Of a stretch of DNA of 64,000 nucleotides, positions 726 to 63,719 are shown one piece after another (position 1 is the first letter of the stretch; each line of letters begins with the position of its first letter). The position numbers and the translations under genes are program-made. Below the pieces are notes generated by a model that was given only the letters and a program-made list of their open reading frames with translations, ran no database searches and was not told where the DNA came from. Source of the stretch: Tubulanus polymorphus (Eukaryota; Animalia; Nemertea); assembly GCF_964204645.1 (NCBI RefSeq), contig NC_134029.1:13728850-13792849 (forward strand), given 5' to 3'.

Positions 726-756
726 TTTTTTCATTATATAAATGAATATAACTAAT

Positions 757-2056
757 ATGGCTAGACATATGAAAAAACATGATGAAAATTATAAACCCCC
801 TAAACTAAACTGTCCAAAATGTAATAAATTATTCTCAAGAAATTATGTTTAAAAAAATTCAGAGAAGTGTAGAATTAATGACACAACGGTTAATGTTGAT
901 AGTAACGAAAGTAATAGTAATTCTGTTGAAGTTGAACCTGAAATTATTTGGAAAAGACCTTTTTTATTCTATGATAAGGATAATATAAAAGATCATTTCT
1001 GTGAGCCTTGTCGAATAAAATATAGCCCTGAAAATATAGAAGATTGGAGAATCATCAATTTCGTAAAGTACATATAGATAAAATTTCTAATAAATTTGAA
1101 ACTGAATTCAATGAAAGAAAAAATAATTTATTAGAAAAAATAAAATATGAGAAAACGTTACCAGATAATAAAGAAACAGTTGAAAAGTTAGAAAAACAAT
1201 ATAATGAATTAACAAGAAAAACATATTATTGTAAATATTGTAAATTGATTATTACAACAAGTAATTCAAATCTACATAATAGAACAATAAAACATAAAGA
1301 AAACGTAAGAAAATACAAGGAGCTTAATGAAGATCTATTACCAATAAATTATAAACAAAAATGCCCACAATGTAATTATGCGACCTTAAGACAAGAAGGT
1401 ACTGTGTTATTTTGTAATGAATGTGGATGGCAAAAGAATTTATGGGGTGATGAAAAAACTAGAGATTTTCTCATAGAACCAAAATTAAATTATCTAGATG
1501 AAATTTTTAAAATATTTTCTATAGAAGATCATACACCAGAATATATGCAATGGCTTGAAAAAATGAAAATGATAGAAAATAAAAATGGTGAAATAACTAA
1601 AAAAGATATTATAAAAACAATTATTCCATCAACATTTAACACAAAACAAAAGAAAATGTATTTATATTTATTATTTAATGATTATTATGAAAAACCTAAA
1701 TTAACAGAAAAAGATATGGAAAATATAAAAAAAACATTCAAACAAATATTATCAAAATATTATCAAATATTATGTATCATTTGGAAAATAGAATAACAGA
1801 TTCAATTAATTATGAATTCTTTTTAAATAAGATTGTAAATTATTTAAACATCGATATTATAATTCCATATAATTTTGATGAATTAACAAACAAAAAGAAA
1901 CAAAGAGAGCGAGATGAAATGTGGCACAATATAACACGTGATTTAAATGAGAAAAATGAAATGGAAGAACCTAAACAAATTATACAAGAACAATTAAATG
2001 AAAATGAAGAAGCCAAAAGTGATTTCGAGTATGATGATATTGATTTTCTGTTTTAA
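757..2056 (+). pseudogene. zinc-finger/VLTF3-like protein, frameshifted and lacking its start
   Basis: ORFs 1044-1796 and 1772-2056 match the intact 429-aa ORF 53336-54625. Confidence 0.8.
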
Positions 2057-30634: not shown

Positions 30635-30988
30635 ATGGAGAGTAAACAAGCAAACAGCGAGAACAACAAATTATTTCTAGATAGAATAAAAAATACTTCA
30701 AATGTCAAATCAGTAGATTATAAGTTTAAGAAGTTAAAAGAATTAACAATCCATAAGAAATATCTAATTACAGATATTGTTACAGTTACTAACAAATATG
30801 GAGATAAATTAGTGATACACTTAGAATATGAAGGATTAAAAGGAAATACATATAAATTCAGAACATATTTACCAGATAGATTTCATAGATTATCAAGTGA
30901 CGATTTAGAAGAATTATGTTCAGGTGATTTCTATTTCATATATAAGGGTAAGAATGAGAAAGGGCACCGTGAAATAGATTTTGAATAA
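30635..30988 (+). CDS. 117-aa protein of the type B replication module, possibly a small OB-fold/ssDNA-binding protein
   Basis: Intact ORF directly after pPolB; TNKYGDKLVIHL and YLPDRF pattern; second fragment at about 8075-8165 (-). Function is a guess. Confidence 0.55.
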   Translation: MESKQANSENNKLFLDRIKNTSNVKSVDYKFKKLKELTIHKKYLITDIVTVTNKYGDKLVIHLEYEGLKGNTYKFRTYLPDRFHRLSSDDLEELCSGDFYFIYKGKNEKGHREIDFE

Positions 30989-43276: not shown

Positions 43277-46200
43277 GGTAATAGGGATAATAGGCTTTCA
43301 TACCAAAGGTCGAAAGGTCGAGAAATTTTCCAAATGTGAAAATAACAATAATTTCTACTTGAATTAGTCGCGTACACTCCTAATTCAAGTAGGAATTATT
43401 ATTATTTTAACATTTGGAAAATTTCTCAACCTCTCAACCTTTAATATGAAAGCCTATTATCCCTATTACTCTTAAAATATTCATTTACATGAATAAAATA
43501 TAAATGAATAACATATATAAGTAATTAGAAAAGTAGGCTTTCAGATCAGAGTACGAGAGTACGAGCTCTTATAGAATAGATATATAGATATATTCTAAAC
43601 ATATTTCAATATTTATATTTGTATGGGTTAGATTTTTAAACATAAAAAGTATTAGTAAAGTGTGATTGAAATAATTCATATTTAAATCATTGAACTTCTA
43701 ATATCAATTAAAAAAAAAATTAGTATTAAAATGGAAGCAAATAAGTACTACTGTTCAACATGTAATATCAATATAGATAAATCCCAAAAAGCAAGACACA
43801 ATAAAACTAAAACACATTTAGAGAATAAATTGAAACTAGAATATGAAGATGATATATTAGAAACTAAATAAGATGAATTAAAGAATGAAAAAGAAACATA
43901 CACATGTGATACATGTAATCAATCATTCAGTGATAAAAGATATTATCATGAACATTTAAAATCTAAAAGTCATATTAGAAATAAGAATAATGATATTTTA
44001 GGTGAGGATTATTTTGATGAAGATAACGATAAGAAACATAAGACAATTAAAAGAATAAGAAATAAATTAAACAATAAAAGACCATACATGGAAGATGTAA
44101 GAAATTATATCAATTCATTAGATAATAAAAAGGATATAGAAATAACCGAAGCATTTAAAAGTGATATTGGTCCAGCAGCTATTGAGTTTAAATTTCATAA
44201 AGGAAAAACATTAGAAGAAAATAAAAAACATTTAGAAAATATGAAAGATATAATAAAAATAATTACTGATGTTGAATACCCTAAAATTAGTATATCTTCT
44301 AAAGTAAAGTTTATAAAATCTGAAGATAAACCAAAATATAATATAAATTCTCATTCACAACATATTATTTCAAAACAACATATGGATGATAAATTAGATA
44401 AATGTTATAATGAAGTAAAAACTAAAATAGAAGAGAAATATTTTGAAGGATCAGGTTTAATATTTGATGAAATAATATTTATGGCTTTACATGTTTATAA
44501 CACAAAATATAATATGTTAACTAAATCAAAACCAATTGATGAAAATAATGTATCATATTATAAAGAACCAGATATTGAAGCATCGAGTTATGTTAAACTA
44601 CCATTTAAAACTAATGCTGTTATAAATGTACAAAATGAAGATGATGAATGTTTTCTATGGCGAATAATTAGTTGTTTACATCCTGCATCCATATATAATA
44701 TTTGTAGATTAACTCATTATAAACCATTTGAAAATAATTATAAGATATATAATTATCCTGTTAGAATTAAAAATATCCCAAAAATAGAAAGAGATAATAA
44801 TTTAAGAATAAATGTATTTGATTTAATCAAATTGCCAAATACAAAAGGTAACAATATAAAACATTATACATTAGAACCTTTATACCTATCAAAAGATTAT
44901 GATTCAAATGGTGTTATAGATATATTATATTTTGAGAATCATTATATGTGGATTAAACAAATAGATTTATTCTTTAGAACAGAAAGTGATCACCATAATA
45001 AAATATATCTATGTAGAAAATGTTTACATAGATTCAGTGATGAAAGTACATTATTAAATCATAAACAATTATGTGATAATCATGATTATTGTAAATTAGT
45101 TTTACCAAATGAAAAAGATAAAATATTAGAATTCAAAAAATATGATTACAAAAATAAAGTTCCATTTGTAATATATGGAGATTTTGAATCATAAAATAAA
45201 GATTTAACTGATCAAGATAGAAAAGAAATATATTATAAAAGAAAGAAATTAAATTCTAATGAAAATGATTTTTCAGATGAACCACCAAAAACAAATACTA
45301 TTAAAAAGATTCATCAATCAGCTGCAGCTTTCGGGTTATATATTAAATCTGATTATCCAGAACTAATTGAAAGTGAATATTATCATTACAGAAATGAAAA
45401 TGTTATCAATCATTTTTGTGACTTATTAATTGAATATGAAATAAGATTTAGAAGAAAATAAAAAAAACATTTAGAAAATATGAAAAATATTATAAGAATA
45501 ATTACTGACGTAGAATATCCTAAAATTAGTACATCTTCTAAAGTTAAATTTTTTAAATCTGAAGATAAATCAATATATAATATAAATTCTCATTCACAAC
45601 ATATTATTTCAAAACAACATATAGATGAAAAATTAGATAAATATTATAATGAAGTAAGAACTAAAATAGAAGAGAAATATTTTGAAGGATCAGGTTTAAT
45701 ATTTGATGAAATTATACTTATGACTTTACATGTATACAATACAAAATATAATAAGTTAACTAAATCAAAACCAATAGATGAAAATAATTTATCATATTAT
45801 AAAGATGATAATATAAATGGATCAAGTTATATCAAATTACCATTTAAAACTAATGCTGTTATAAATGTACAAAATGAAGATGATAAATGTTTTCTATGGA
45901 CAATTATAAGTTGCTTACATCCAGTTGAAGATTATAATCAACATATTTATAGATTAACACATTATAAACAATTTGAAAATAATCATAAGATAGATAATTA
46001 TCCAGTTAGAATTAAAAATATCCCGAAAATAGAAAGAGATAATTATATAAAGATAAATGTGTTTGATTTAGTCAAATTACCAAAAACAAAAGGTAACAAT
46101 ATAAAACATTATACATTAGAACCTCTATACTTATCAAAAAGATTATGATTCAAATGATGTTATAGATATATTATATTACGAGAAACATTATACGTGGATT

Positions 46201-48319
46201 AAAAGAATTGATTTATTTTTCAAATCAGAAAATGATTATACTCGTAAAATGTTTCAGTAATGAAAGTGCAGTATTGAATCATAAACAATTATGTGAAAAT
46301 CATGATTATTGTAAAAAAGTTTTACCAAATGAAAAAGATAAGATTTTAGAATTCAAAAAATATGATTACAAGAATAAAGTTCCATTTGTAATATATGGAG
46401 ATTTCGAGTCACTCAACAAAGAATGAAAATGATGTTATTGATTATTCAGATCCTCTAATAACAAATACAATTAAAAATATTCATCAAAGTGCTGCAGCTT
46501 TCGGGTTATATATTAAATCTGATTATCCAGTTATCCAGAACTAATCAAAAGTGAATATTATCATTATCGAAATTAAAATGTTATTAATCATTTTTGTGCC
46601 TTATTAATTGAATATGAAATAAAATTTAATAAATTGTTGAATAAAAATAAAGAAATAATTATGACAGAAGAAGATAAAGAAGAATTTGTGTTTGCAGGTA
46701 AATGTTATTATTGTGAAAACATATTTAATTATAAGTAAGAGACCATGATCATTTGAATGGAAAGTTTAGAGGCGCTGCACATGAGAATTGTAACTTACAA
46801 GCTAAGAAAATTAACTTTGTGCCAGTTATATTTCATAATCTATCAGGAGGTGATGCACATTTATTTATCAAACAGTTATGCCATAAAATAGAAGAAATTA
46901 ATAATGAAATAGAAAGATTAAATTCAAATAGATCAAAAGATAAAATACCAACTTATAAATTTAAAATGTTAGCTAAAACATCTGAGAATTATATATCATT
47001 CCAATTTGGTTGCCTAAGGTTTATAGATTCATATAGATTTTTAAATAGTTCATTAGATAACTTATCAAAATCATTAGTTGATGATGAATTAAAAATATTA
47101 AAACAACACTTTCCAAATAATGATGATTTCCAATTAATGAGATATAAAGGAGCAATTCCATATTCTTTCTATAAAAATCACAATGATTTTAACATAACTG
47201 AATTATTAAAAGAACAATTTTATGATGAATTAAAAAATGAATATGTTAAAGATGAAGTATATATTAGAACATTGAATATTTGGAATCATTTTGGAATGAA
47301 AAATCATGGGCAATTAGTAGATTTATATTTAAAATCAATATTGATCCTTGTCATTGTTATTCTAGTCCAGGTTTAACATGGGATTGTGGATTAAAATTTA
47401 CAGATATAAAAATGGATTTGTTAACAAAAATAGATCAATTATTATTATTTGAAAAATCTATAAGAGGAGGAGTTTCAGGTGTATTAGGCGATAGATATTT
47501 CAATGTAAATGATAACCCTGGATATAAGTTATTATATATAGATGCAAATAATTTGTATGGTTGGGCAATGATGGAACCACAACCTTATGGAGTATTTGAA
47601 ATAAGTGAAGTTTTACAACATGAAAATAATGATAAATTTGAGTGAAAGAAAAGAATCCTAGATATTGCAGATGATTCTGATACTGGTTACTTCTTTGTTG
47701 TAGATTTAGAATATCCTGAATATATTAAATTTAAATCTAGAAATCTAGCATACTGTCCAGAACATAAAACTGTAACTCATGAAGAATTATCAAATTATCA
47801 AAAAAGAATTAAACCCGATAATCATATTCATACAGAAAAGTTAATGGTAACTCAGGAAGATAAATATAATTATGTAGTACATTATAGAATGTTAAAGTTT
47901 TATTTGAATCAAGGAATGATCCTAAAAAAAGTACATAGATATATTTCATTCAGTCAATCTAAGTGGTTAGAAAAATATATAGATTTTAACACCAAACAGA
48001 GAACTGAAGCTAAAACTGATTTTGAGAAAGATTTCTTCAAGTTAATGAACAATGCATTCTATGGTAAGACTTGTGAAAATATTACAAATAGAAATGATAT
48101 TGAGTTAGTAAGTAATGGCAAAAGGATAAGGCATTTACAAACATATCCTAAATTTATTGGCAACAGAATATTTGATGAAAATTTAGCTGCAGTTAAAATG
48201 AGAAGAACATCTATGAAATTTAATAAACCAATTTATGTTGGAGCATCAGTTTTAGAAATATCAAAATTACTAATGTATGAATTCTATTATAATGTATTAC
48301 AACCTCATTTTGGAGAAAA
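43277..48319 (+). mobile_element. Polinton-like copy 5 (type B): left end and truncated pPolB
   Basis: Terminal palindrome 43277-43470, internal terminal motif at 43520, pPolB from 43731. Confidence 0.9.
43731..48319 (+). pseudogene. polB: pPolB (type B) with ~1.24-kb diverged internal duplication, truncated before motif C
   Basis: ORFs 44088-45194, 45480-46148, 46753-47376, 47280-47645 and 47844-48350. Confidence 0.9.
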
Positions 48320-48383
48320 TAATGAATTGTCGCGGGCGATAAAACCGTAATAATGAATTGTCGCGGGCGATAAAACCAAAATA
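48318..48383. repeat. two units of the 31-bp minisatellite at the pPolB breakpoint
   Basis: AATGAATTGTCGCGGGCGATAAAACC occurs twice. Confidence 0.9.
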
Positions 48384-49394
48384 CTACAGAAAACCAACTG
48401 TTTGATGGACCCAACAGATAGGTACAAATATCAAAAGAAATATATTAGTTATTACTGAGGGCCCCAATATGTCTGTTTAATACCATCTCATAAACTCAAC
48501 AGTTTGAAACGGGGGAAATCTTATGATATGAAATGAGAGACTACGTAGAAAAAACCAGTGCCTGTGGCTACTAGTCGACAATTTCTAAATTAATTTTCCT
48601 GTGCGATTTGGTTTCGTCCAATTGAGAGACTGCTTTTTTCAGTAGGGCATTTTTTGGATCACATCACTGGAAATTGGCTTGTGCTTTTGGGCCCCTTCGT
48701 TGGTTATCTACAAATGTTTCATATAAGCTATCGACCACAAAGCTGACACCGTGATGGTCAGAAACTGACCATAGAGATATGATCCCTCAGTCTGAACGAT
48801 TCAGACTTCGAATATCGGAAATTTCTCAAGCCATGTTTGTTTACAAATATTCATCATTGCAAATTTATAAGCTGACCAACACTGACCACTACTGACGAAT
48901 TACAATTTCACGAACATGAGAACGATATACCGCGTTTGGTGTGAAACTAGAAAAGATTCGCCATTGAAGATTCATGAATTGACCATTGACCACCAATGAC
49001 CAATTCAAAAAGAATAAGATCACAATACAATGATTTACCCCCACTTTCATCCAATCAGCACGATACCATTTAATTGAATCTAACGCATTGGGCTCCTGAT
49101 ATTTGAAATCATTTGTTACAATGAAGTTGATCCTAAGACTTGATCACCTGCGATACAGAAAACGTACAAGACGAAATTTTAAGATTGTAAAATCCGATTA
49201 GGTGATCGTCATTATGACGACAGCTCCATCACTGTAATTCTTAAGAGATTAGAACCACTTCTGGGTCGTCACTACAATTAAACTTTGACTCGAAATAATG
49301 ATTAATTAGTAATTAGAAAAGTGGGGTTTCAGGCCAGAGGGCGTGAGGGCGAGACACCCCACTCATCACCACAAGTAATTTTTTTCCCTAATAA

Positions 49395-52300
49395 ATGGGA
49401 GAGAGTGAGTTCCAACTAGAAAACAATAATGTCAATAAAAATCAATATTATTGTCAATATTGTAAAAAATACATCGATACATCTCATAAAACACGACATG
49501 AAAAAACTGCAAATCATATAAAAAATGTAATAGATTTTGAAACTCCAGAAAATTCCAATGAAAGAAAAGAAAGATTAGAAAATATGAATGTGGATGAAAT
49601 AAAATGTGAAGTTTGTAATGAATTTATAGTAAAAAGGAATTATAATAGACATCTCGAATCACAAAAACATTATAAAAATTTGAGTAATAATGTTTTAGGA
49701 TTAGAATATTTTGATAATAAACCTCAACAAGTAAAAGAATCAACTTCAAAAACAAAATCCATTTCAAATAAACCTTACATGGAAAATGTTAGAAATTATA
49801 TTGATTCACTAGAAATAAAAGATACAATTGAAATCTTAGAAACATTACATAGTAAAATTGGTCCTGCAGCTATTATATTTAGATTTTTTAAAGGTACAAC
49901 AATAGAAGATTATAATAAATTTAATGAAATAATAGAAAAAATACTAGATTTGATAACAGATGTTGAATATCCAAAAATTAGTATCTCTGGGAAAGTAAGT
50001 TTTATAAAGTCAGAAGAAAAAATGGATTATAATATTCAAACACACTCTGAAGAAATAATTTCAAAAACACAAATAAAAGAGAAGTTAGAAAAAATATTAA
50101 ATGAATTTAAACGTCATATTGAAGAAAGATATTTTGAGGGTTCTGGCTTAACATTGAATGAAATTATATATTTAGATTTAAATGTTTATAATACAAAAAG
50201 GAATAAAACATCAAAAAGTAATAAAATGTTTAAAAATGATTCAAACTTTACAACAGAAAAGGATATTAAAGCATCATCTTATATCAAATTACCATTTACA
50301 ACAAAAGCAGTAATAAATATTCAAAATGAAGATAATAAATGTTTTCTATGGTCAATTATTAGTTGCTTACATCCAACAGAAGAACATGTTTATAGAATAA
50401 CAGATTACCGGAAATATGAAACATTATATAAAATTGATCAATATCCAGTAACTATAAAAATGATTCCTAAAATAGAAAAAGTTAATAATTTAAAAATAAA
50501 TGTATTCAAATTAATGCAATTACCAAAGACAAAAGGTGAAAATATTAAAGATTATACATTGGAAGCTTTATATTTAACAGAATATTATGATGATGAAAAT
50601 GCTATAGATTTGTTATATTACAAAAAAGATGAAAATGAACATTATATGTGGTTAAAACAAATTGATTTATTCTTTAGAACAACAGAAAGTGATCATCATC
50701 GTAAAATTTATCTATGTAGAAAATGTTTATCTAAATTTATGACTGAGAATACATTACTAAAACATAAAGAATTATGTGATAATAAAGATTTTTGTAAATT
50801 AATAATGCCAACAGAAAAAGATTATAAATTGAAATTTACTAATCATAAATTTAAAAATATTGTTCCATTTGTAATTTATGGGGATTTTGAATCGTTGAAT
50901 AAAGAATTAACTGATCAAGATAGAAAAGAAATATATAACAAAAAGCAATTATTAAAATCAATGGATAAAGGAAATGATTTAAATGAAGACATAATACAAG
51001 ACCCACCAATTATAAATACAATTAAAAAAGTTCATCAAAGAGCTGCTGCTTATGGAATTTATATAAAATCAAATTATCCCGAATTATATGAAAGTCAATA
51101 TATTTCTTTTATAGGTGAAAATGTAGTTAATTATTTTTGTGATAAAATTATTGAATTAGAAAGTGATTTTGCAAAATTATTAAACAAAAATAAAAGAATA
51201 GTTATGACAAAAGAAGATGAAATTGATTTTAATTATGCAACTCATTGTTGTTATTGTGAAAAACGTTTTTATTCATTTGATAAAAGAGTTAGAGATCATG
51301 ATCATTTGAATTCAAAATATCGTGGAGCTGCTCATGAAGATTGCAATTTACAAGCTAAAAAAGTAAATTTCGTACCAATATTATTTCATAATTTATCAGG
51401 ATATGATACCCATCTATTTATAAAACAATTATCGGGAAAATTGGGCGCAATTAATCAAGAAATAGAAGAATATAATGCTATGAACGAAGCAAATGTAAGA
51501 AAATATGATTTTAAACTATTAGCTAAAACATCTGAAAATTATATTTCATTTCAATTTGGTTGCATTAGATTTTTAGATTCTTATAGATTTCTAGCAAGTT
51601 CATTAGATAATTTATCAAAAAGTTTAGTTGATAATGATTTTATTATAACTCGATATTATTATCCAAATGACCAAGATTTTAAATTATTGAGATATAAAGG
51701 TTGCAATTCCTTATTCATTTTATAAAACACATGATGATTTTAATGTAACAGAATTATTAAAAGATCAATTTTATGATAAATTAAAAGAGGAGTATGTGAA
51801 AGACGAAGTTTTTGATAGAACATTAAATATTTGGAACCATTTTAAGATGACATATTTGAAAAGTTTAGAGAAGTTAATCTAAACCATTTTAATGTTGATC
51901 CTTGTTATTGCTACTCTAGTCCTGGTTTAACCTGGCAATGTGGTTTAAAATATACAAATGTAGAATTAGATTTATTAAAAGAACCAGATATAGTTTTATT
52001 ATTTGAAAAATCAATTAGAGGTGGAATTAGTGGTGTTATGGGAGATAGGTATTTTAAAGCAAATGATGAATATAAATTATTATATATTGACGCCAATAAT
52101 TTATATGGTTGGGCAATGATGCAACCTCAACCATATAAAAATTTTATATTAACAGAAGTTGAAAATGATGATAAAACTGATTGGGAAAGCGCAATTGCGA
52201 GTTTAAAAGATGAAGCACCAATTGGTTATTTCTTTGTAGTTGATTTAGAATATCCTGAAAATATAAAGTTTAAAACAAGAAACTTACCTTATTGCCCAGA

Positions 52301-53339
52301 ACATTTAACTGTAGATGATAGTTATTTAAGTGAATACCAGAAGAAAATAAAACCGAAAGATCATGTTTTTACAGAAAAATTAATACTTACTCAAAATAAT
52401 AAATACAATTATATTGTTCATTATAGAATGTTAAAATTTTATCTAAAACAAGGAATGAAATTAAAGAAAGTACATAGATATATTGAATTTAATCAATCGA
52501 AGTGGTTAGAAAAATATATAGATTTCAATACTCAACAGAGAACAATATCAAAAAATGATTTTGAGAAGGATTTTTTTAAGTTAATGAACAATGCATTTTA
52601 TGGAAAAACATGCGAAAATATTAGAAATAGAAATGATATTGAATTAGTGAATAATTATGAAAGATTAAGGCATTTACAATCAAGTCCTAGACATCTAGGA
52701 AATAAAAGATTTGAGGATTATTTGACCGCGGTAAAATTAAAAAGAACGTCAATGAAATTTAATAAACCAATATTTATTGGTTCGACTGTTTTAGAAATTT
52801 CAAAGCTATTGATGTATGAATTCTATTACAATGTATTACAACCTCATTTTGGAGAAAAACATATAGAAATCTTATATTTTGATACTGATGCGTACATATT
52901 AAAGATAAAAACTGATAACATAACAAAAGACTTAAAAACATTGAAACATTATTTTGATTTTAGTAATTACCCTAAAGATCATGAATTGTTTAGTAATGAT
53001 AATAAAAAGATTCCTGGTAAGTTTAAAGATGAATTAGGAGGTGATGAAATGATTGAATTTGTTGGGATAAGAAGTAAAATGTATAGTTATAGAACAAAAG
53101 ATCATGAAGCTAAAAAGTTAAAAGGAATAACAAAACATGTGGTTGATAAACATATAGAATTTCAAGATTATATAAAGTGTTTATATAAATCAATTGTAAT
53201 GAAACACAAAATGAATTGTTTAAGATCAGAAGATCATGAGATGTACATTAATGAAGTTGAAAAAACTAGTTTAAATCCATTTGATGATAAAAGGCATATT
53301 TTAGATGATGGTATAAAAACATTACCTTATGGCCATTAA
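49395..53339 (+). pseudogene. polB: pPolB (type A), intein-free; 1-nt insertion near 51701 and ~58-bp deletion near 51848
   Basis: ORFs of 776 aa and 433 aa; all Exo and Pol motifs present; motif C reads YFDTDA. Confidence 0.95.
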
Positions 53340-54625
53340 AACATAAAATCAATATCATCAAACTCGAAATCATTATTAGCTTCTTCATTTTCAGGTTCTT
53401 CTTCCATTCCATTTTTCTCATTTAAATAAAGTTCTATCTTGTTCCACATTTCATCTCGCTCTCTTTGTTTCTTTTTGTTTGTTAATTCATCAAATGGAAT
53501 TATAATATCTAGGTTTAAATAATTTACAATCTTATTTAAAAAAAATTCATAATTTATTGAATCTGTTATTCTATTTTCCAAATGATACATTAATATTTGT
53601 TTAAATATTTTTTTTATATTTTCCATATCTTCTTCTGTTAATTTAGGTTTTTCATAATAATCGTTTGATAATAAATATAAATACATTTTCTTTTGTTTTG
53701 TGTTACATGTTGGTGGAATAATTGTTTTTATAATATCTTTTTTAGTTATTTCGCCATTTTTATTTTCTATTATTTTCATTTTTTCAAGCCATTGCATATA
53801 TTCTGGTGTATGATCTTCTATAGAAAATATTTTAAAAATTTCATCAAGATAATTTAATTTTGGATCTATAAGAAAATTTCTAGTTTTTTCTTCATCCCAT
53901 AAATTCTTTTGCCATCCACAATCAACACAAAATAACACAGTACCTTCTTGTCTTAAGGTCGCATAAATACATTGTGGGCATTTTTGTTTATAATTTATTG
54001 GTAATAGATCTTCATTAAGCTCTTGGTATTTTCTTACGTTTTCTTTATGTTTTATTGTTCTATTATGTAGATTTGAATTACTTGTTGTAATAATCAATTT
54101 ACAATATTTACAATAATATGTTTTTCTTGTTAATTCATTATATTGTTTTTCTAACTTTTCAACTGTTTCTTCATTATCTGGTAACGTTTTCTCATATTTT
54201 ATTTTTTCTAATAAATTATTTTTTCTTTCATTGAATTCAGTTTCAAATTTATTAGAAATTTTATCTATATGTGCTTTACTAAATTGATGATTCTCCCAAT
54301 CTTCTATATTGTCAGGGCTATATTTTACTTGACAAGGCTCACAGAAATTATTCTTTACATTATTCTTGTTATAAAATAAGAAAGGTCTTTTCCAAATAAC
54401 TTCAGGTTCAACTTCAGCAGAATTACTATCAACATTAGCCATTGCGCCATTAATTCTACACTTCTCTGAATGTTTTTTAACATAATTTCTTGAGAATAAT
54501 TGATTACATTTTGGGCAGTTTATTTTAGGGGGTTTATAATTTTCATCATGTTTTTTCATATGTCGAGCCTTATTACTTTTTCTTAGAAGTTCACCACAAA
54601 TTTCACATGCTATCTTCTCGTCCAT
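53336..54625 (-). CDS. multi zinc-finger protein with C-terminal poxvirus VLTF3 (A2)-like domain
   Basis: N-terminal C2H2 fingers; CPQC-x13-CVDC ribbon; IFKQILMYHLEN...SINYEFFLNKI...DEMWNKI resembles recalled vaccinia A2 IFKHLVFFCQEN...TINYSFFLDKI. Confidence 0.7.
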   Translation of the reverse strand: MDEKIACEICGELLRKSNKARHMKKHDENYKPPKINCPKCNQLFSRNYVKKHSEKCRINGAMANVDSNSAEVEPEVIWKRPFLFYNKNNVKNNFCEPCQVKYSPDNIEDWENHQFSKAHIDKISNKFETEFNERKNNLLEKIKYEKTLPDNEETVEKLEKQYNELTRKTYYCKYCKLIITTSNSNLHNRTIKHKENVRKYQELNEDLLPINYKQKCPQCIYATLRQEGTVLFCVDCGWQKNLWDEEKTRNFLIDPKLNYLDEIFKIFSIEDHTPEYMQWLEKMKIIENKNGEITKKDIIKTIIPPTCNTKQKKMYLYLLSNDYYEKPKLTEEDMENIKKIFKQILMYHLENRITDSINYEFFLNKIVNYLNLDIIIPFDELTNKKKQRERDEMWNKIELYLNEKNGMEEEPENEEANNDFEFDDIDFMF

Positions 54626-54682
54626 TTATTAGGGGAAAAAATTACTTGTGGTGATGAGTGTAATTTTTTTATGTTATAAATA
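54626..54682. promoter_or_regulatory. divergent promoter containing an inverted copy of the terminal promoter motif
   Basis: 54623-54660 is the near-exact reverse complement of 49360-49397. Confidence 0.7.
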
Positions 54683-55479
54683 ATGGTAGAATTAAAAGAA
54701 TACAGAATATTTGTTGATTCTAGAAAACTTATAAATTATAAATCTCATAATTTATTAGTACAATTAGATAGAGAATTTAAGAATTGTGTAGATTTAAAAT
54801 TAGTAAATATAAGTTTATGTAATTCTTTTTATAATATATCGGATAAAACTGATGAACATAGAAGCCTTCTTATTTTTGATAAACTTGAAAAAAAATGGAT
54901 TCAACTTATGCTTACACCAGGATTATATGATTTAGAAACATTAGAGCAAGAAATTAATAGAAAAGCTCGGATTAGATTAGGTAATGGTAATTCTAAATTT
55001 AATATTAAATTCATAAAAAGTGAGAGCTCTAATAAATTAAAATAAAGCTTGATGATGAACTTATTAAACTTGATAAATCTAATCCATTGATGACAAGAAG
55101 ACATACTTACACAGCAAAAAAACCTATAGCTAAACTATTAGGAATTACTCCAAATCAATTTGGTGGAAACAAACACGGTAACTCAAATATAATACCTTTT
55201 ACACACTTTTATATTTATTGCAATTTAATCGATCCTACAAAAACATTCGAAGCAACTAAAGATACAACATGTAATTCTAGTATATTAAACATTTTACCAT
55301 TGAAGAATGTTAAACAATTTGGAACGCAAATAAATTATAATTTAGCTGAATGTGATTTTAAACCTTGCATTCCTCATTTTAATAATTTTAGATTAGAAAT
55401 TAGAAATCATAATGGATACTTAATTGATTTAAATAACTTTCCTGTGATATATGAATTAGTTATAAGATGTAGAGAGTAA
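54683..55479 (+). pseudogene. putative minor capsid (penton-like) protein, one frameshift near 55035
   Basis: About 265 codons, beta-rich pattern, penton-like C-terminus. Confidence 0.65.
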
Positions 55480-55495
55480 TTTTTTCATTATATAA

Positions 55496-55852
55496 ATGAA
55501 TATAACTGTTGGACCGAGTATATGTTTTGGATTTGATTTTAAACATGGTAAAGAAATGAAATTTAACATTAATGATGTAATAACACATATCAAAAATGTT
55601 GTATTTTCTAATGAAACAACATTTGAGTATGAAACAACAATAGATAAAGAAACTTTAAATGTAGAAAAGATTACTAATTTAATTAGAGAATCTTTAAGAT
55701 TTTATGAATTAGATGAAGATTTTATAATCGATGATATTAAGAAAATAATAATTGAAATATATACAAATGAAACTAGTAATAAAATAAATGTTGAATTAAT
55801 CATCACTAAGTTAAATAAATATTTTGATGATAGTAATTTTTTTGATAAATAA
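55496..55852 (+). CDS. conserved hypothetical protein (118 aa)
   Basis: Intact, TAAATG start, homologue at 31777. Confidence 0.8.
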   Translation: MNITVGPSICFGFDFKHGKEMKFNINDVITHIKNVVFSNETTFEYETTIDKETLNVEKITNLIRESLRFYELDEDFIIDDIKKIIIEIYTNETSNKINVELIITKLNKYFDDSNFFDK

Positions 55853-56074
55853 ATGAGTGATAATAAGTGGATAATAACTGGATTATATAATGGCGCATTA
55901 CTATCAGTTGGAACTGTTGGTTATTCAATGGTATTAAAAAAAGTATTCAAAATGGGAAGTGTTAATGTTGATAGATTTGATATAAATGATATTTTGAAAT
56001 TAACATTAGCAGTTACTTTATCTAATTTAACTATTGATTATTTGGAAAAACAAAAATATATTCCTCCCATATAA
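55853..56074 (+). CDS. small hydrophobic protein (73 aa)
   Basis: Two hydrophobic segments; homologue at 32121. Confidence 0.75.
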   Translation: MSDNKWIITGLYNGALLSVGTVGYSMVLKKVFKMGSVNVDRFDINDILKLTLAVTLSNLTIDYLEKQKYIPPI

Positions 56075-56098
56075 ATGCATAATTTTTTTGCTAAATAA

Positions 56099-56521
56099 AT
56101 GGCTTCTGCAATTATAACTATTATAGGATCAGCAATAGTTAACGCTTTAGCATTTACTGGTGGTGGATATTTATTTAAACATATTGATAAAAATAGTTCA
56201 TTAGGAGAACAAAGAAGACATAATTTAGCGTTAGAGAAATACAATAAAGCAGCAGAAGAATATAGAGAAAAAAGACAAAACTATATGGATTACATCAATA
56301 AAGAATTATATGATCAGAAGATTTCACACAGAGATTTTCAATCAGTTGATGATGCAATGAGTTTATATAACGCAGTAACCAATAAAGAAAAATTACATCT
56401 ATACAAACCTAAATTATCAGATTATTATACCCCAAGTAAAGAACAACAGAAATATGAAATAATTTGGATTTTAGGTGGAACAGTTATTGTTATATTTGTT
56501 GCTTATAAGTTTACTAATTAG
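56099..56521 (+). CDS. membrane protein (140 aa) with N- and C-terminal hydrophobic helices
   Basis: Four copies in the window. Confidence 0.85.
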   Translation: MASAIITIIGSAIVNALAFTGGGYLFKHIDKNSSLGEQRRHNLALEKYNKAAEEYREKRQNYMDYINKELYDQKISHRDFQSVDDAMSLYNAVTNKEKLHLYKPKLSDYYTPSKEQQKYEIIWILGGTVIVIFVAYKFTN

Positions 56522-56540
56522 TAATTTTTATTCTAAATAA

Positions 56541-56975
56541 ATGGAAGATAAAGTTGATAGTATTGATATTATTCCTCATGATATAAATAAAACTAAATTA
56601 AAAACATATTTAGAAAAACAAATATTAGAATTCGAAAGTGACTTAAAGATAAAAAAGAAAAAATATTTAAAAAGTAAAATTATATATTATTTGATTATCA
56701 GTGGTTCGGTTACAATTAGTTCTGTAATAACATTTCTAGCAATATTCAGTCCATTAACACCTTTAGCTATATCAATTGGTGTATTAGGATTAAGTTCAAG
56801 TGTTTTAACTGGTATAAGTTCAAAATTAAATATAAAAAGTAATAAAGAAAAAATCAAAACTAATATAAAAGAAATAAATAAATTAAAGAACACACTAGAT
56901 TATATAATAAGTTTAAATGGTCATATAACGGTTGAAGAACAAGATAAATTATTAAAAGAATTAATAAATTATTAA
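56541..56975 (+). CDS. two-TM protein (144 aa)
   Basis: Central hydrophobic hairpin flanked by coiled coil; four copies. Confidence 0.85.
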   Translation: MEDKVDSIDIIPHDINKTKLKTYLEKQILEFESDLKIKKKKYLKSKIIYYLIISGSVTISSVITFLAIFSPLTPLAISIGVLGLSSSVLTGISSKLNIKSNKEKIKTNIKEINKLKNTLDYIISLNGHITVEEQDKLLKELINY

Positions 56976-56991
56976 TTTTTTAGTTATATAA

Positions 56992-58320
56992 ATGGGGTTT
57001 CCAAAAGCTTTCCAATATAATAAATCAATTAAATATAATATTCCGGCAATAGATTTTAAGAAAAATATTACATATAAAAATATAGTTTTAAATTCATTAA
57101 CTAATTTAGAAATTTATGTTAATGAATCACAGTTTTTTATTTCTAAAATGGAAAATATATTTAATACATATGAAGTTACTTTTACTCGAGATGAATATCA
57201 TAAATATAAAGTAAAATCTAATATGAAGTATTGGCAGAACCAATTAAATTTTGCTGTTTATTGTGCAACAACAGGATGTGGAATAAGTTGGAATGATCAT
57301 TTAAATAACTTAGATAAAAATTTGAAGTATTCTGATTTAAAATTAATTCACACAATATTTAGATTTCACACATATTTTCAAATCAGAATAATATTAAATG
57401 AATTAGAATGTCCTTTACCCGGGTCTAAATATTTTAAAGAATTGGATAATAATATTAATATATCCAAGTTTTATAAAATATGTAATGAATTTAATATAAA
57501 TATTAATTCCGATTTCAGAGCGCATGGTAAATTGCAAGGTGTTGGTGAAGAGTTTGAAATAAAAAGAATTGATTATATTCATAGAATTTCAGCTTATCAT
57601 AATTATAAAATTGATAATAATAATGGTTGGGTTAATTTCATTTTAGAAAATGGTGAAGGTTTTACAAAATCAGGTATACAAAGAATAAATCAATCTATTA
57701 GAATTTATTTGATATGTATTTTAGGCGCTCAAGTTGAAACAAGATCCCCAATAATTGGAAATGATAACACTTCATTTGATGCGCAGAAACAGTTTAAAGT
57801 TTTATTTGAAGATTCAATTCATAATGATAAAAATAGATCGATTCCAGAAAACATTATAAGATATCAAAATTATTTAGATAAATCTCATGTAAGACTTAAT
57901 TATTGTATAGGCCCTAATCTATTAATTATTTCTAATGATTTAGTATTAAAGATGGGAAACATAATTGGTTATAATAATCTAATTAAAACTGCAACAATAA
58001 ATAATTCATTTGGGTTAAATGATATAAATAAAAAGATTATTACTGCTCCAAAATTAATGGAAGGTGAAAAAAATAAAAAACACATTCAATCAACTGAAAC
58101 TAAAACTAAGAATATTAAATTAAATAATGATTCTAAAATAAAAGATTATAATACATCAGAAAATATTAGAACTGATAATGGTGTCATATGGCACCCACAC
58201 GGTGATATTCAACATGATGTAATTAAACTAAATGATGATAATAAATTCCATGAAAATACTAAATTAGCTATAACTTGTATAGGAATTGTTATAGGAGGAA
58301 TATTATATTTCAAATTTTAA
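56992..58320 (+). CDS. conserved 442-aa protein with C-terminal TM anchor
   Basis: Intact ORF; WQNQLNFAVYCATTGCG conserved in other copies. Confidence 0.85.
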   Translation: MGFPKAFQYNKSIKYNIPAIDFKKNITYKNIVLNSLTNLEIYVNESQFFISKMENIFNTYEVTFTRDEYHKYKVKSNMKYWQNQLNFAVYCATTGCGISWNDHLNNLDKNLKYSDLKLIHTIFRFHTYFQIRIILNELECPLPGSKYFKELDNNINISKFYKICNEFNININSDFRAHGKLQGVGEEFEIKRIDYIHRISAYHNYKIDNNNGWVNFILENGEGFTKSGIQRINQSIRIYLICILGAQVETRSPIIGNDNTSFDAQKQFKVLFEDSIHNDKNRSIPENIIRYQNYLDKSHVRLNYCIGPNLLIISNDLVLKMGNIIGYNNLIKTATINNSFGLNDINKKIITAPKLMEGEKNKKHIQSTETKTKNIKLNNDSKIKDYNTSENIRTDNGVIWHPHGDIQHDVIKLNDDNKFHENTKLAITCIGIVIGGILYFKF

Positions 58321-58336
58321 TTTTTTTATTATATAA

Positions 58337-59791
58337 ATGGATGTAGAAGGTGGAGAAGATATTGGAATGGATCCTTTTGATGAACCTAACATAACTGATG
58401 AACAACCACCTGATTTTGTTGAAACAAGTTTTAATGATGGTAATGAACCAGTATAAAACAATAATTTAAATATGCCTGATTATATTAAAAATGCTGAATC
58501 ACAATTAAATCCTGAAAATTTAGACCCAGATTTAGTAAAACAAGATTTAGATAATTTAAACAAAATACCTAAATTAGAAGATTTAATTGAAAAATCTAAT
58601 TTTAACATAAATGATGAAGACGTTGGACTTTTAGCAGATCAATTAAAATTTTTAGATAATGGTAAATGTTATTATCGTTTGAAAGGTGATTATTATATTG
58701 ATATCACTTATAAAAATAATAAAAATAAAATATTATCAGAATCAACTTTAGAAAAATTAAAACCAGATAGAATTAAAATAATAAGTAATAGTAATGAAAT
58801 AACTGATGTTACACAAAAAGAAATAGATGATAATATAGATGTATTTAAACAAAGAATTAATGAATTATTTGAAATAATCAAAAAGAAATCAGAAACAGAA
58901 ACAACTTCTGAACAGAATATAACTTCCAAAAATAGTAAACATAGATCAAATAAAGTTCCAATTGAAAAACTTTTACCGAATGGATTACTTGATGCAACAG
59001 ATCAAGAATTAGAAGATTTAGATATATTTTCTGATAAAGCAATTAGAGAAATTATTAGTATAAGACTTGCATCTGATAAAATTGCACATAATAAAAGTAT
59101 AAGAGATTTTAAAATTAGAACTTTAGAAAAAGAATTAACTGATAAAAATAAAGAAATAGAACAACTAAAGTCTGATTTAGATCATCAAGTAATTGATGAA
59201 ATAGAATATAGGCAAAAAGAATTACGTTTAGAAAAAGAAAAAGATGATTTAGAATATAACATAGAATTTCAGAAAGAAGAAATTAAATTATTATTAAAAT
59301 CATATGATTATAATATTAATAGATTAAAAGTTATTTTTAAAGATTTGTTGATTAAACCAAATTCTGAAATATAATTAAAAGATAGAATAAGATTATTATT
59401 TAAATTAGAAGGAATAACAATTCTTTCAATTCTAACAGCTGTAACTATGTTATTTACAACAATTGGTTTAGCAATATCAAATGCTTTGAAATCTACTCCT
59501 ACTCCCAATAAACCAGATAAACCTCCGGAAAATAATTCTATACAAGATAAAGTTAAAGATGGTTTAAAGAAATTAGCAAAATATTTATGGGAACTATCTA
59601 AAAAATCTGCTGCAGCACTACCAGGAGTTATTGCTTCAATTGTTGGTTTTGTTTTAAAATCTGCAGGAAACATTATTAACTTTGCTGCTGAATATATTAT
59701 TTTATTTTTAATCACAGTTGTAAGTGCTATTATTTTTGGGTTAGTGAATATGATATCAAAAAAATATCAAGTAAACCATGATAAAAAATAA
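58337..59791 (+). pseudogene. coiled-coil protein with C-terminal TM helices (~484 codons, in-frame TAA at 58454 and 59372)
   Basis: The ATG at 58337 and ORFs 58472-59374 and 59447-59791 are all in one frame. Confidence 0.8.
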
Positions 59792-59815
59792 ATGATTAAT
59801 TTTTTTGTTTAATAA

Positions 59816-61063
59816 ATGAGTGGGAGTTATATAAGTCCTTCTAAGATTTCTAGAATATCTAATGCTATTAAAGCAGAAAGATCACATCATATAATTACTC
59901 ATAACCCTTCAAATATTAATCCCGATGAAACTTTATATGTTAGAATTCCGAGATTAACACAAAATACTTTTTATGTTCCAAACAGTATTTATTTATCAGC
60001 TGATATAAAAGTATCTGGTAATAATAATAATTATGTCGTTGATAATGTTGGAAGATATTTGATTAAAAAGTTAACAATAAAGATTGGTCCGGAAACAGTT
60101 TTCTCATTAGATGATTATAATTTATTTATGCATTATAAAGATTTATGGTTAACAAAAGAAAATAGAAATAATATGATATTTCAGGGTATTCAATCAGAAA
60201 ACCAAAATAAATTAAGATCAGAAGCTAATAGCGCAATATTAACTAATGATGTAGATAAATTGATAAAAAGTATATATGGAAGCAAATATAAAATTCCATT
60301 AGACTTTGAATTGATAAATAATAATGCACCTTTATATAAATACGCAATTCAAGAAGATATTATATTTGAGATAACATTTGCTCCTGTAAATGAAATTGTA
60401 ATATCTAGCGTTAATAAAGATATGAATTATAAATTATCGAATATATGTTTAGAATATGATACAGTAACTGATGAAAATATTGCTAGAACAATTCAAACTC
60501 AATACAATCAAGGATTTTCATTATTATATGATTATATTGATAAATTTAAAACTGTAACTATTAATGCAAATGATGAAATAATAAATGAGAATATTAACTT
60601 CCCAAGAAGATCTATTAAAGGTATATTAATATTTTTTACTATTGGAACGTATACTAATGGTGCAATAAATGTTGACAATTATTATAATCCTGAAATAACA
60701 AAAGTAGAAATAACTATCGAAGGAATAGCAAATAAAATATTTTGTCAAGGAATGAGAATGATTGATCAATGGGTAGAAATTAAAAAACATTTTATGAATG
60801 AAAAAGTAAAATCATTTGAAAATTGTAACATTAATCAAATTGATTATTATACCGGTAATAAATTTGCATTATGGGTAGATTTTAGAACAACAGAAGATAA
60901 TTCATTACATGGTTCTGGAAAAAAACTACAGAACACTAAAGATGGAATACAATTATTCATGAAAAAGAATAAAGGAATCAAAAATTTTAAAATGCACATT
61001 TATATTATATCTGATGCGCAATTAAATATTGTAAATTCACAATTAGATAGTATTCAATATTAG
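59816..61063 (+). CDS. putative double jelly-roll major capsid protein
   Basis: 415 aa, beta-strand-rich, highly conserved between copies, next to integrase and ATPase. The fold is inferred. Confidence 0.7.
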   Translation: MSGSYISPSKISRISNAIKAERSHHIITHNPSNINPDETLYVRIPRLTQNTFYVPNSIYLSADIKVSGNNNNYVVDNVGRYLIKKLTIKIGPETVFSLDDYNLFMHYKDLWLTKENRNNMIFQGIQSENQNKLRSEANSAILTNDVDKLIKSIYGSKYKIPLDFELINNNAPLYKYAIQEDIIFEITFAPVNEIVISSVNKDMNYKLSNICLEYDTVTDENIARTIQTQYNQGFSLLYDYIDKFKTVTINANDEIINENINFPRRSIKGILIFFTIGTYTNGAINVDNYYNPEITKVEITIEGIANKIFCQGMRMIDQWVEIKKHFMNEKVKSFENCNINQIDYYTGNKFALWVDFRTTEDNSLHGSGKKLQNTKDGIQLFMKKNKGIKNFKMHIYIISDAQLNIVNSQLDSIQY

Positions 61064-61093
61064 AAATATAAAGTTAAAATTAAGCGTATATAA

Positions 61094-62221
61094 ATGGGTG
61101 GTAAAAAATCTCCTAATACTAAAGAACAATATTTAAGAAATTTATATTACAACCCTGAGAGTTCGGTTGCTTATTCTTCTACCAAACATATATGGCGTCA
61201 AGTAAAACAAGATAAATTAGATAAGATAATCCCACAAAATTTAGTTAAATATAAAGATATAAATGAATTTATGTTAGAACAACCAACATATACAACACAT
61301 AAAAAAATTGTTAGAAAATATAAAACTCGTAAAACTATGGTAAGTTATGTAGATCAACAGTGGCAAGGAGATTTAATTGATATGAAAAATGTTAAGAAAG
61401 ATAATGATGATTATTGGTGGTTATTGAATATAATTGATATTTTTAGTCGTTATGTATGGAGCTTCCCACTTTATAGAAAAGATGCTGTACAAACATCAAA
61501 TGTTTTAAGAAAATTTCTTTCAGGTGGTAAACTAAAACGAGAAAAAATTCAATTTGATGATGGAAAAGAATTTGATAATTCATTAGTTCATGGACTTTTA
61601 GATTTTCATAATATTAAATATTTTTCAACAAAATCGGATAAAAAAGCAGCAGTTGTTGAACGATTTAATAGAACATTAAGAACAAGAATGTGGAAATATT
61701 TTACAGCAAATAATACTTTTAAATGGATTGATGTTTTACCAAAATTGATAGAAGGATATAATAATTCTTATCATTCTTCTATTGGAATGAAACCTATTGA
61801 TGCTAGAAAACCTGAAAATGCTGAAATTGTTTGGAATAATTTATATGGAGCATTTCTTGTAGATGATTTTGGTGAACCTAAATTTAAAGTTGGTCAAAAT
61901 GTTAGAATTTCTAAGTATAAAAAGATATTTGACAAAGGATACGATCGAAATTTTACTAGAGAAATATATAAAATAAAAAAGGTAATAACAACAAAACCAT
62001 ATGTCTATAAATTAGAAGATTTAGATGGTGAAGAAGTTGATGGTTACTTTTACGAAGAAGAATTAAGTTTAACTACTGAAAATCTAGAACAAGAATATAA
62101 AATTGAAAAAGTACTAAAAACAAAAACTGTTAAAAGAAAAAAATATTCTTTAGTAAAATGGGTTGGATGGCCAGATAAATTCAATGAATGGATATTATCA
62201 AGTAAAATTAAAAATATATAA
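61094..62221 (+). CDS. retroviral-like (rve) integrase with C-terminal chromodomain
   Basis: DDE residues in WQGDL, QFDDGKEF and VVERFNRTL; YKIEKVLK...LVKWVGWPDKFNEWI. Confidence 0.96.
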   Translation: MGGKKSPNTKEQYLRNLYYNPESSVAYSSTKHIWRQVKQDKLDKIIPQNLVKYKDINEFMLEQPTYTTHKKIVRKYKTRKTMVSYVDQQWQGDLIDMKNVKKDNDDYWWLLNIIDIFSRYVWSFPLYRKDAVQTSNVLRKFLSGGKLKREKIQFDDGKEFDNSLVHGLLDFHNIKYFSTKSDKKAAVVERFNRTLRTRMWKYFTANNTFKWIDVLPKLIEGYNNSYHSSIGMKPIDARKPENAEIVWNNLYGAFLVDDFGEPKFKVGQNVRISKYKKIFDKGYDRNFTREIYKIKKVITTKPYVYKLEDLDGEEVDGYFYEEELSLTTENLEQEYKIEKVLKTKTVKRKKYSLVKWVGWPDKFNEWILSSKIKNI

Positions 62222-62830
62222 ATGAATAAGGAATTATTTATATTTGAGCCTCATAATATGTTAATTTCTGGCGTAACAAATTGTGGAAAAACTTATTTTA
62301 TATTAAATTTATTAGAAACTGTTTATGAAAACTATTTTGATAATATAGTATTATTTTGCCCAACCTATGAATTTAATCAAACTTATGATAGAAATATTAC
62401 TAGGAATAATAAATTTATTATATTAGATCCTAAAACAGTAAAAGAAAATTTAGATAATTGTATAAAAATAGCAATTGATATTTATAAAGGATCAAATACA
62501 TTATTTATCATAGATGATTGTGCTAATCTACATGATTCAAAAGTTAGAGAAAGTGAGTTATGTTATTTAGCTTTCTCTGGTAGACATTTTGGGATAACAA
62601 CTTGGGTTTTAAATCAAAAATATAATTCAATTGTTAAAGACTTTAGAGAAAACATTAGATTTCTAGTTTTATTCTACAATAAAGATAGAAAATCGATGAA
62701 AAATGCACTTGAGGAAAATGATATTATTCCACATGATTTACATAATGAATATATGGATAAGTTGAAAAATATTAAAAGATCAAAATTACTATTTAGATTA
62801 CAACACCCATTTAAATATGAATTTATTTAA
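62222..62830 (+). CDS. A32/FtsK-HerA family DNA packaging ATPase
   Basis: GVTNCGKT, LFIIDD and SGRHFG...NQ. Confidence 0.93.
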   Translation: MNKELFIFEPHNMLISGVTNCGKTYFILNLLETVYENYFDNIVLFCPTYEFNQTYDRNITRNNKFIILDPKTVKENLDNCIKIAIDIYKGSNTLFIIDDCANLHDSKVRESELCYLAFSGRHFGITTWVLNQKYNSIVKDFRENIRFLVLFYNKDRKSMKNALEENDIIPHDLHNEYMDKLKNIKRSKLLFRLQHPFKYEFI

Positions 62831-63096
62831 ATTCAACTAGCTTGTTAATCTAATTGAATTCTAGTTACATTCTAGTTGAATTCTAGTTGTTAGTAGTTGA
62901 AACAAAAATCAACTAGATTTAACAATATTTCAACTAGCTTGTTAATCTAGTTGAATTCTAGTTGTTAGTAGTTGAAACAAAAATCAACTAGAATGTAACT
63001 AGAAATAAACAAAAACAACAATATTTCAACTAGCTTGTTAATCTAGTTGAATTCTAGTTACATTCTAGTTGAATTCTAGTTGCAACAACACAACTA
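62831..63096. repeat. array of short palindromes (TTCAACTAG / CTAGTTGAATTC)
   Basis: Three units TTCAACTAGCTTGTTAATCTAGTTGAA near 62832, 62929 and 63025, plus subrepeats. Confidence 0.9.
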
Positions 63097-63113
63097 ATTT
63101 GTTTGTTATATAA

Positions 63114-63719
63114 ATGGGAGGTGAAAAGAAAATAAAATCTAAAAATGGTGATGTTCCAATTGAAAAAATTTTAGATGATTTAGGAATAACAGAAACAAAA
63201 TTAACTCCAGATGATGGTGCTTTAAATAATGTTACAACAAATAATAATTATGAATATTATCTTTATTGTAAACATCAATTAGAAATATTAATAGCATCTG
63301 GAAAATGTAAAAATTTTGTCGGTAAAAATTTAACTTATAATGAATTAGATACAATGAAATCAGATGAAATTATTAGATTATTTAAGATTTATGAATCCGC
63401 GAGAACAGCTAGAATTAATGACGCGATATCAGAAAATGTAGTAAAAGGTTATAGTAAATTATGTAATTATATACTACCAATTGAAGATGAAAATAGATTA
63501 TATTCTGATTTAAAAAATGATTATTTAGTTATGACTGAATTAAATAAATGGATTGGATATTTATCATTTCAATTAGGTGGATTTATGACATTATTATCAA
63601 CTGGAGTTATAACATTTTCAAATATTGAAAGTAAAAATATTTCTATAATAAATGAGCGAGGTGAAAGAAGTGAAGGAATTACCTGTGAAGAAAAAACCGA
63701 GAACTCAGAAACAAATTGA
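63114..63719 (+). CDS. conserved hypothetical protein (201 aa) with hydrophobic C-terminal segment
   Basis: Homologues at 14965 and 40027. Confidence 0.8.
   Translation: MGGEKKIKSKNGDVPIEKILDDLGITETKLTPDDGALNNVTTNNNYEYYLYCKHQLEILIASGKCKNFVGKNLTYNELDTMKSDEIIRLFKIYESARTARINDAISENVVKGYSKLCNYILPIEDENRLYSDLKNDYLVMTELNKWIGYLSFQLGGFMTLLSTGVITFSNIESKNISIINERGERSEGITCEEKTENSETN

Follow-up and report, generated by a model that had tools for sequence, protein, structure and literature searches.

The C-terminal domain of a 429-aa protein encoded by a Polinton-type element of Tubulanus polymorphus is a homologue of VLTF3, a late transcription factor of poxviruses (A2 in vaccinia), fused to four zinc fingers and encoded next to genes that start, in their majority, at a motif resembling a poxvirus late promoter. 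The presence of VLTF3 in a Polinton is a known kind of gene capture; in this case it is real, divergent and has a new, finger-fused architecture.

The element and its copies

For most of the window, which is the whole 64,000-nt stretch of DNA that was analysed, the GC content is about 23%. This AT-rich sequence contains several decayed copies of a single Polinton family, nested in one another, and between them lie fragments of Pao-type peptidase and reverse transcriptase, Pao being a group of retrotransposons found in animals. The best-preserved copy starts at about 49309 and continues beyond the window end, having its right end outside, and reads of one DNA run cover all of 48500-64000 with many variants, as expected for a repeat family. 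The gene order in this copy is a broken protein-primed family B DNA polymerase (pPolB), VLTF3 on the opposite strand, nine ORFs, a probable capsid gene, rve integrase, A32 ATPase and a further two ORFs; the Polinton/Maverick hallmarks pPolB, rve integrase and A32 ATPase are all present. The left end with the pPolB promoter (49309..49404, + strand) is common to two window copies and to the relative L001, similarity to the second copy stopping at 49308. The pPolB gene (49395..53339, +) is broken into ORFs 49395-51725 and 52038-53339, is 92% identical to a copy with the Pfam family DNA_pol_B_2 and 71% identical to L001, and has a stop that overlaps the VLTF3 stop, which places the two genes tail-to-tail. 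The nine small to medium ORFs (54683..59791, +) have no firm family and carry the promoter motif at 55496, 55853, 56099, 56541, 56992 and 58337. They are followed by a probable double jelly-roll major capsid protein (MCP; 59816..61063, +), with a weak Capsid_N match in 13 of 32 homologues, DJR-like Atlas clusters and 178 homologues. The motif is also at the start of the MCP gene and of the retroviral-type integrase with chromodomain (61094..62221, +; rve 33.5 bits against a cut-off of 32.6), and for the A32-like packaging ATPase (62222..62830, +) it lies inside the coding end of the integrase. No adenovirus-type cysteine protease was found among the 53 ORFs scanned, the element continuing past the window. 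The original prediction that the element lacks an RNA polymerase holds for the ORFs scanned, none of which encodes one, with the right end of the element beyond the window.

A second, broken VLTF3 copy had also been predicted and was confirmed at 751..2056 (+), tail-to-tail with a pPolB copy at 2053-6957 (-). It lacks the first 16 codons, has two frame changes and was recovered by tblastn as the pieces 751-1068 (aa 17-117, 72%), 1047-1751 (aa 111-345, 93%) and 1745-1933 (aa 336-397, 84%). A genome scan for the capsid gave two short fragments only. The VLTF3 protein P0006 and the capsid P0130 come from contigs of equal size (16,883), as do P0004 and the capsid P0031 (12,994), which suggests, without proving it, that the VLTF3 genes of P0004 and P0006 belong to complete elements of this capsid lineage. 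Other capsid homologues (the P0053 cluster, L003 and L004) are registered under Bartonella isolates or marine bacterial MAGs on very short contigs, and are probably host-derived contamination.

Some further features of the window were recorded. The non-coding stretch between the ATPase and the next gene (62810-63082) is a cluster of repeats, both direct and inverted, built on an 11-nt unit; it could be an origin or packaging signal, and a similar self-inverted stretch is found at 37358-37739. In the second pPolB copy (3253-3530, -) homology ends after a YFD motif and the polymerase resumes at 2511; the sequence that follows the break is unrelated and gives the impression of an intein start. 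The ORF at 56541-56975 encodes a small membrane protein of two helices that matches SLATT_fungal weakly (E 0.004); two Polinton papers name SLATT genes in their figure keys. A divergent, partly duplicated pPolB copy is located just upstream of the main element (43773-48317). Satellite arrays with units of 31 nt (about 88 copies) and 155 nt lie between element copies (25102-29457, 48318-48377), and related self-complementary segments of ~190 nt (22318-22507, 42418-42607, 43278-43469) lie by LINE-type RT fragments and pPolB starts.

Assignment and affinity of the VLTF3 domain

The finger-VLTF3 ORF (53336..54625, -) encodes 429 aa and is intact, without an internal stop. It comprises four zinc fingers (54047..54607, -; aa 7-193), the VLTF3/A2-like domain (53423..53989, -; aa 213-401) and an acidic tail. 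The fingers include a C2H2, a C2HC and two of the U1/matrin type, with the ligands C7-C10-H22-H26, C37-C40-H52-C56, C95-C98-H113-H119 and C172-C175-H187-H193, and the protein has a zf-U1 match in Pfam (28.9 bits against a cut-off of 22). The domain consists of a Cys4 ribbon and a helical body colinear with poxvirus A2. The ribbon cysteines (C216-C219-C233-C236) are invariant in the four family members and aligned with pox and giant-virus ribbons, and the whole domain with its terminal W helix is likewise kept in all four. Fingers 1 and 4 resemble the two N-terminal fingers of the element's pPolB (38% over 39 aa, E 4e-7; 43% over 21 aa). At the pPolB start (49395-49700) there are two U1-type zinc fingers, which are also present in L001. 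An exhaustive protein search gave three relatives of the C-terminal part, namely P0002 (48%), P0003 (39%) and P0004 (37% over a part); two of these three, P0002 and P0003, carry the four fingers as well, and P0004 has the ribbon only. A word-index protein search with the whole 429-aa protein gave no match, a profile search added no relatives beyond these three, and searches of the viral contigs and the phage collection gave no relatives of the element's VLTF3 domain, those of the viral contigs also giving none for capsid or polymerase.

The VLTF3 homology of the C-terminal domain is firm, and the VLTF3/A2-like identity originally predicted is borne out by profile, Foldseek fold and language-model searches. 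Pox_VLTF3 (Pfam PF04947) was matched above its cut-off of 25 bits in all three C-terminal cuts (26.5, 27.1 and 30.3 bits; E 6e-6 to 4e-7), over positions 83-164 of the 168 in the profile; as the family was not reported for the whole protein, this sequence match is real, if marginal. For aa 206-412, an AlphaFold2 model built from a 4-row alignment had a pLDDT of 81 (41 for the single-sequence fold) and aligned with predicted VLTF3 structures along its full length; its Foldseek comparison with predicted viral structures returned 12 matches at E<=0.001, six of them named VLTF3 or late transcription factor. The best named VLTF3 match was cowpox (E 2.9e-6, TMq 0.63, 209 columns, query and target both being predictions), two entomopoxvirus VLTF3 proteins were matched at E 1.2e-5 and 2.9e-5, and in the same list the top match is unnamed and the third is named exonuclease. 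The Atlas language-model search with P0002 led to VLTF3 clusters, one of them mostly Preplasmiviricota, with a features score of 0.93 and all of the 10 best named matches in the family. In the PDB, the sequence search gave zinc-finger matches only, and the fold search placed TFIIB and Rap94 chains near the top, all weak (E>=0.11; best, a TFIIB chain at E 0.11); no solved VLTF3 was found there by either search. The TFIIB likeness of the modelled domain may be taken as a lead. The motifs quoted in the original prediction are all present in the 429-aa sequence, and the vaccinia-type motifs that it named occur in poxvirus A2 proteins, colinear with the window protein. A chance likeness of an AT-rich, helical protein would agree with the silence of Pfam on the whole 429-aa protein (Pox_VLTF3 not reported at E<=0.01), with the lack of Pox_VLTF3 matches in P0002-P0004 at E<=0.1 and with the lack of an A2L_zn_ribbon match in the C-terminal cuts; however, the above-threshold Pfam matches, the Foldseek and Atlas results and the match of a pox profile to aa 214-405 make it extremely improbable.

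Like vaccinia A2 (PF04947, PF08792), the element protein has the Cys4 ribbon, a short linker, colinear helices, the INY-FFL-KI stretch, the terminal W helix and the same predicted fold. It differs from A2, to which it is about 21% identical, by the four extra N-terminal fingers and the acidic tail, and by being encoded in an element with no detected RNA polymerase, A1 or G8 homologue. A pattern written from the window's own INY-FFL-KI stretch had 117 matching stretches in viral contigs, and all those scoring well against the element profile were poxvirus A2 (23 full-length and 15 partial); three of these A2 loci were checked by Pfam, with D13 and P4b neighbours at one locus. A giant-virus-type set of 120 further loci was found with a giant-virus motif. 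The element profile scored the 23 full-length poxvirus A2 proteins at 39.5-51.8 bits and giant-virus-type VLTF3 at no more than 25.9. After removal of the selection motif the ranges were 14.8-28.3 bits (pox, n=23) and -5.9 to 15.6 bits (giant-virus-type, n=70), shuffled or reversed pox sequences reaching at most 9.3 bits. Reciprocally, the window protein (P0001) scored 27 bits with the pox profile and 9.6 with the giant-virus profile. The tree was made of 32 rows (4 element proteins, 11 of the 23 full-length pox and 17 of the 70 full-length giant-virus-type proteins), after partial proteins and near-duplicates had been dropped, and covers no entomopox, asfarvirus, egovirus or PLV VLTF3. It is unrooted and has three long-branched groups, the four element proteins falling outside the chordopox clade (11 rows), and the mean identity of the element proteins is 20.8% to pox and 19.9% to giant-virus VLTF3. 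The lean to poxviruses is upheld by the profile scores, while the unrooted phylogeny leaves the element group outside the chordopoxviruses; the sequence comparisons point to a deep lineage leaning to poxviruses.

Promoter motif and accessory status of the VLTF3 cassette

The ORFs of the element share an upstream layout of TAA, a T-rich run, a spacer and ATAAATG followed by A or G, in which TAAATG overlaps the start codon. TAAATG[AG] is found at 12 of the 18 element ORFs of at least 70 aa (49301-64000) and at 31 of 561 other ATGs (Fisher p 8e-11). The other six ORFs look like four inner parts of broken genes, one antisense ORF and one one-base variant, for which the sibling ORF at 31003 has TAAATG. 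The 12 starts have invariant A at -18/-17, T at -14 and A at -4. A strict pattern, written after the data had been seen, had 12 matches against 0.055 expected (200 resamplings), and its 19 matches in the whole window are all on element gene starts. Between the upstream TAA and the ATG the spacing is constant, whereas the gap to the preceding gene ranges from an overlap to 284 nt; the motif is retained within the preceding coding sequence at 55853 and 62222 and is also found at genes without an upstream neighbour (49395, 54625). The fixed internal spacing, the variable gene spacing and the motif inside coding sequence point to one promoter per gene. Other readings of the motif were rejected. 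Stop-start coupling through TAAATG is true for 2 of the 13 listed starts and is at odds with the motif within coding sequence and at neighbourless genes, and a poly(A) signal is at odds with the two starts without an upstream gene, 6 of the 13 starts reading TATAAA. A set of early-type poxvirus genes was likewise rejected, the T5NT signal not being clearly depleted in the element (z -1.6).

In vaccinia, late promoters have TAAAT and G over the start codon and T about 10 nt upstream, according to the accessible parts of PMC11980589 and PMC5294985, and an entomopoxvirus gene with a TAAATG late signal is described in those of PMC3061580. In the poxvirus control, TAAATG was found at 106 of 292 distinct ORF starts from 23 loci, spurious ORFs included, with T enriched from -13 to -11; in the giant-virus-type control it was found at 41 of 409 starts from 70 loci. 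What the element and the chordopoxviruses have in common is the initiator and a looser T-run only, the strict upstream core being found in none of 23 chordopoxvirus loci. Among the results that count against helper dependence, the AT-rich giant-virus-type loci have TAAATG at 9 of 63 ORF starts, and the element does not show the depletion of internal TAAAT (z 0.07) that pox ORFs do (z -3.2). The relatives L001 and L002 also start at TAAATG; in L001 a finger-VLTF3 and an intact pPolB lie tail-to-tail, each beginning at TAAATG. As searches of viral contigs gave no other animal Polinton for comparison, the motif could be a common trait of Polintons.

A sibling copy (29460-36180) has pPolB, a 117-aa gene (30635..30988, +) at the VLTF3 position and then the same structural block, without VLTF3. 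It keeps the promoter motifs and has VLTF3 replaced, so that VLTF3 is an accessory gene. The 117-aa gene has no Pfam family, starts at TTAAAATG rather than TAAATG, and has a further fragment at 8045-8164 (-). In one DNA run (X6), the alignments of 329 reads break off immediately before 54683, the depth over 54187-54703 being about 160, and the unaligned letters look by eye like the sequence upstream of 31003. From the sibling copy and these read ends, many, perhaps most, copies lack VLTF3, as judged from this one run. The VLTF3 promoter and first codons (54616..54660, -) form a 45-nt, 93% inverted copy of the pPolB promoter (49360-49404), with the TAA-T-rich core and TAAATG. Because the promoter is an inverted pPolB duplicate and two of the fingers are like those of pPolB, the VLTF3 cassette probably arose through shuffling of the element's own parts. 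The 45-nt inverted repeat encloses exactly pPolB and VLTF3, which are also the sole two genes of L001 (6.5 kb); together they may travel as a module, or they may go back to a small linear replicon.

Proposed helper dependence and its alternatives

VLTF3 has already been reported in coral polintoviruses (accessible parts of PMC11131425, citing Krupovic and Koonin 2016) and in PLV groups (10.64898/2026.06.19.733378, in part), and is named in figure keys of PMC8502044, 10.1101/2025.10.09.676808 and 10.1101/2022.07.28.501842. As in those viruses, it is here a patchy accessory gene of Polinton-type elements. The accessible portions of the coral polintovirus and PLV papers attribute VLTF3 to giant-virus exchange and make no mention of a finger fusion, a poxvirus affinity or a promoter, by which description the present element is set apart. 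Nothing further on VLTF3 or promoters in Polintons appears in the available portions of 10.1101/2024.03.23.586382, 10.64898/2026.10.13.758929 and PMC12917281, and neither pox-type promoters nor a finger-VLTF3 fusion were found described for Polintons among titles and abstract openings, a body of text with few subscription papers and without preprint supplements. According to Barth et al. 2024 (PMC11296320, accessible parts), the occlusion bodies of entomopoxviruses contain PLVs. These are small Polinton-type animal viruses linked to a poxvirus, as the element may be; they were found in occlusion bodies, while the element has both pPolB and an rve integrase. The words promoter, VLTF, TAAATG and motif do not occur in the main text of PMC11296320. 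Virophages and PLVs carry helper promoters, as stated in excerpts of 10.1101/2025.10.09.676808 and 10.1101/2022.07.28.501842. Mavirus/EMALE and Gezel-14T (PgVV) are comparable as integrated or small viruses with a helper promoter motif on their genes, but they have protist hosts, mimivirus-type helpers and dependence established by experiment, whereas here the motif is pox-like and dependence is deduced.

Here it is proposed, with about an even chance of being right, that the element is a pox-dependent, virophage-like Polinton whose VLTF3 biases the late machinery of the helper toward element promoters. The post-replicative machinery of a putative pox-like helper would transcribe the element, as virophages use helper promoters; the helper's factors would switch the element on and the element VLTF3 would then amplify its expression. 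Because it lies behind the same promoter as every other gene, the element VLTF3 could not start its own cascade; A2L, in contrast, is an intermediate gene in vaccinia (accessible parts of PMC11980589), while the element VLTF3 has the promoter of its neighbours. The ribbon and helical body would replace the helper's A2 in the late initiation complex, the fingers would bind element nucleic acid and so produce the bias, and helper late transcription may fall as a side effect. The original prediction had argued for a helper from the fact that VLTF3 works with an RNA polymerase that is missing here. This argument is weak, since mriyaviruses keep VLTF3 without one and coral polintoviruses have VLTF3; as VLTF3 occurs in viruses without an RNA polymerase, the gene alone does not imply a helper. 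The helper idea itself is supported by the TAAATG starts. The two window copies of VLTF3, one of them decayed, have 6 synonymous and 19 non-synonymous differences, a ratio of 0.65 (0.11 for pPolB, 0.28 for MCP) that was counted against helper dependence; pN/pS against L001 was saturated and set aside.

An autonomous nuclear element, with VLTF3 as its own TFIIB-like factor for host RNA polymerase II and the motif as a private promoter read by the fingers, would fit the integrase, the upstream core, whose form is more rigid than that of chordopox late promoters (found in 0 of 23 loci), and the best PDB match, a weak TFIIB chain (E 0.11). It also has a parallel in the mriyaviruses, which have VLTF3 but no RNA polymerase and whose replication is believed to be nuclear (PMC11253617, in part), although they differ from the element in keeping VLTF2, in lacking a DNA polymerase and in being classed in Nucleocytoviricota. 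Such autonomy is nevertheless unlikely: judging from known poxvirus initiation, a start within TAAAT would leave almost no 5' leader for polymerase II, the sibling copy without VLTF3 has the same promoters, the VLTF3 gene lies behind the promoter that it must activate, and AATAAA is not depleted in element coding strands (66 against 58.8 expected), as it is not in pox ORFs, the only comparison made.

The protein could instead act as a dominant-negative poison that occupies the A2 site of the helper late complex, shuts the helper late genes off and protects the host. Its strong divergence from known VLTF3 (about 20% identity), its accessory status and the description of endogenous virophages as antiviral (10.1101/2025.10.09.676808, accessible parts) speak for this; the conservation of the domain, ribbon cysteines and terminal W helix in all four members, together with the apparent need of the element's own genes for the same late machinery, makes it distinctly unlikely. 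It is very unlikely that the protein is captured cargo, a nucleic-acid-binding protein made from a captured VLTF3 and polymerase fingers for replication or packaging: the ribbon and helical body are intact over their whole length, and VLTF3 is not known to have a non-transcription role. The points in its favour are the pPolB-like fingers, the promoter duplicated from pPolB, the fixed tail-to-tail link with pPolB and the unrelated gene in its place in the sibling copy.

The interest of the finding lies in the pairing of VLTF3 with element-wide poxvirus-late-like promoters, by which the helper dependence of an animal Polinton becomes testable, the prediction being that transcripts begin within TAAAT, carry 5' poly(A) leaders and arise only while a pox-like virus is infecting. 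Pox-type late promoters on nearly every gene offer a way to predict helpers from sequence, and a divergent, finger-tipped A2 is a natural probe of poxvirus late initiation. It is tentatively suggested, at somewhat short of an even chance, that one lineage of animal Polintons consists of endogenous virophages of poxviruses or of a pox-like relative, all their genes lying behind poxvirus late promoters and some members having their own finger-tipped A2 to commandeer the helper RNA polymerase. If so, this would give a mechanism to the link between PLVs and entomopoxviruses, which was reported without one, integrated Polintons could act against poxviruses in invertebrates, and the element would be an animal counterpart of mavirus in Cafeteria, with a hijacking factor in addition.
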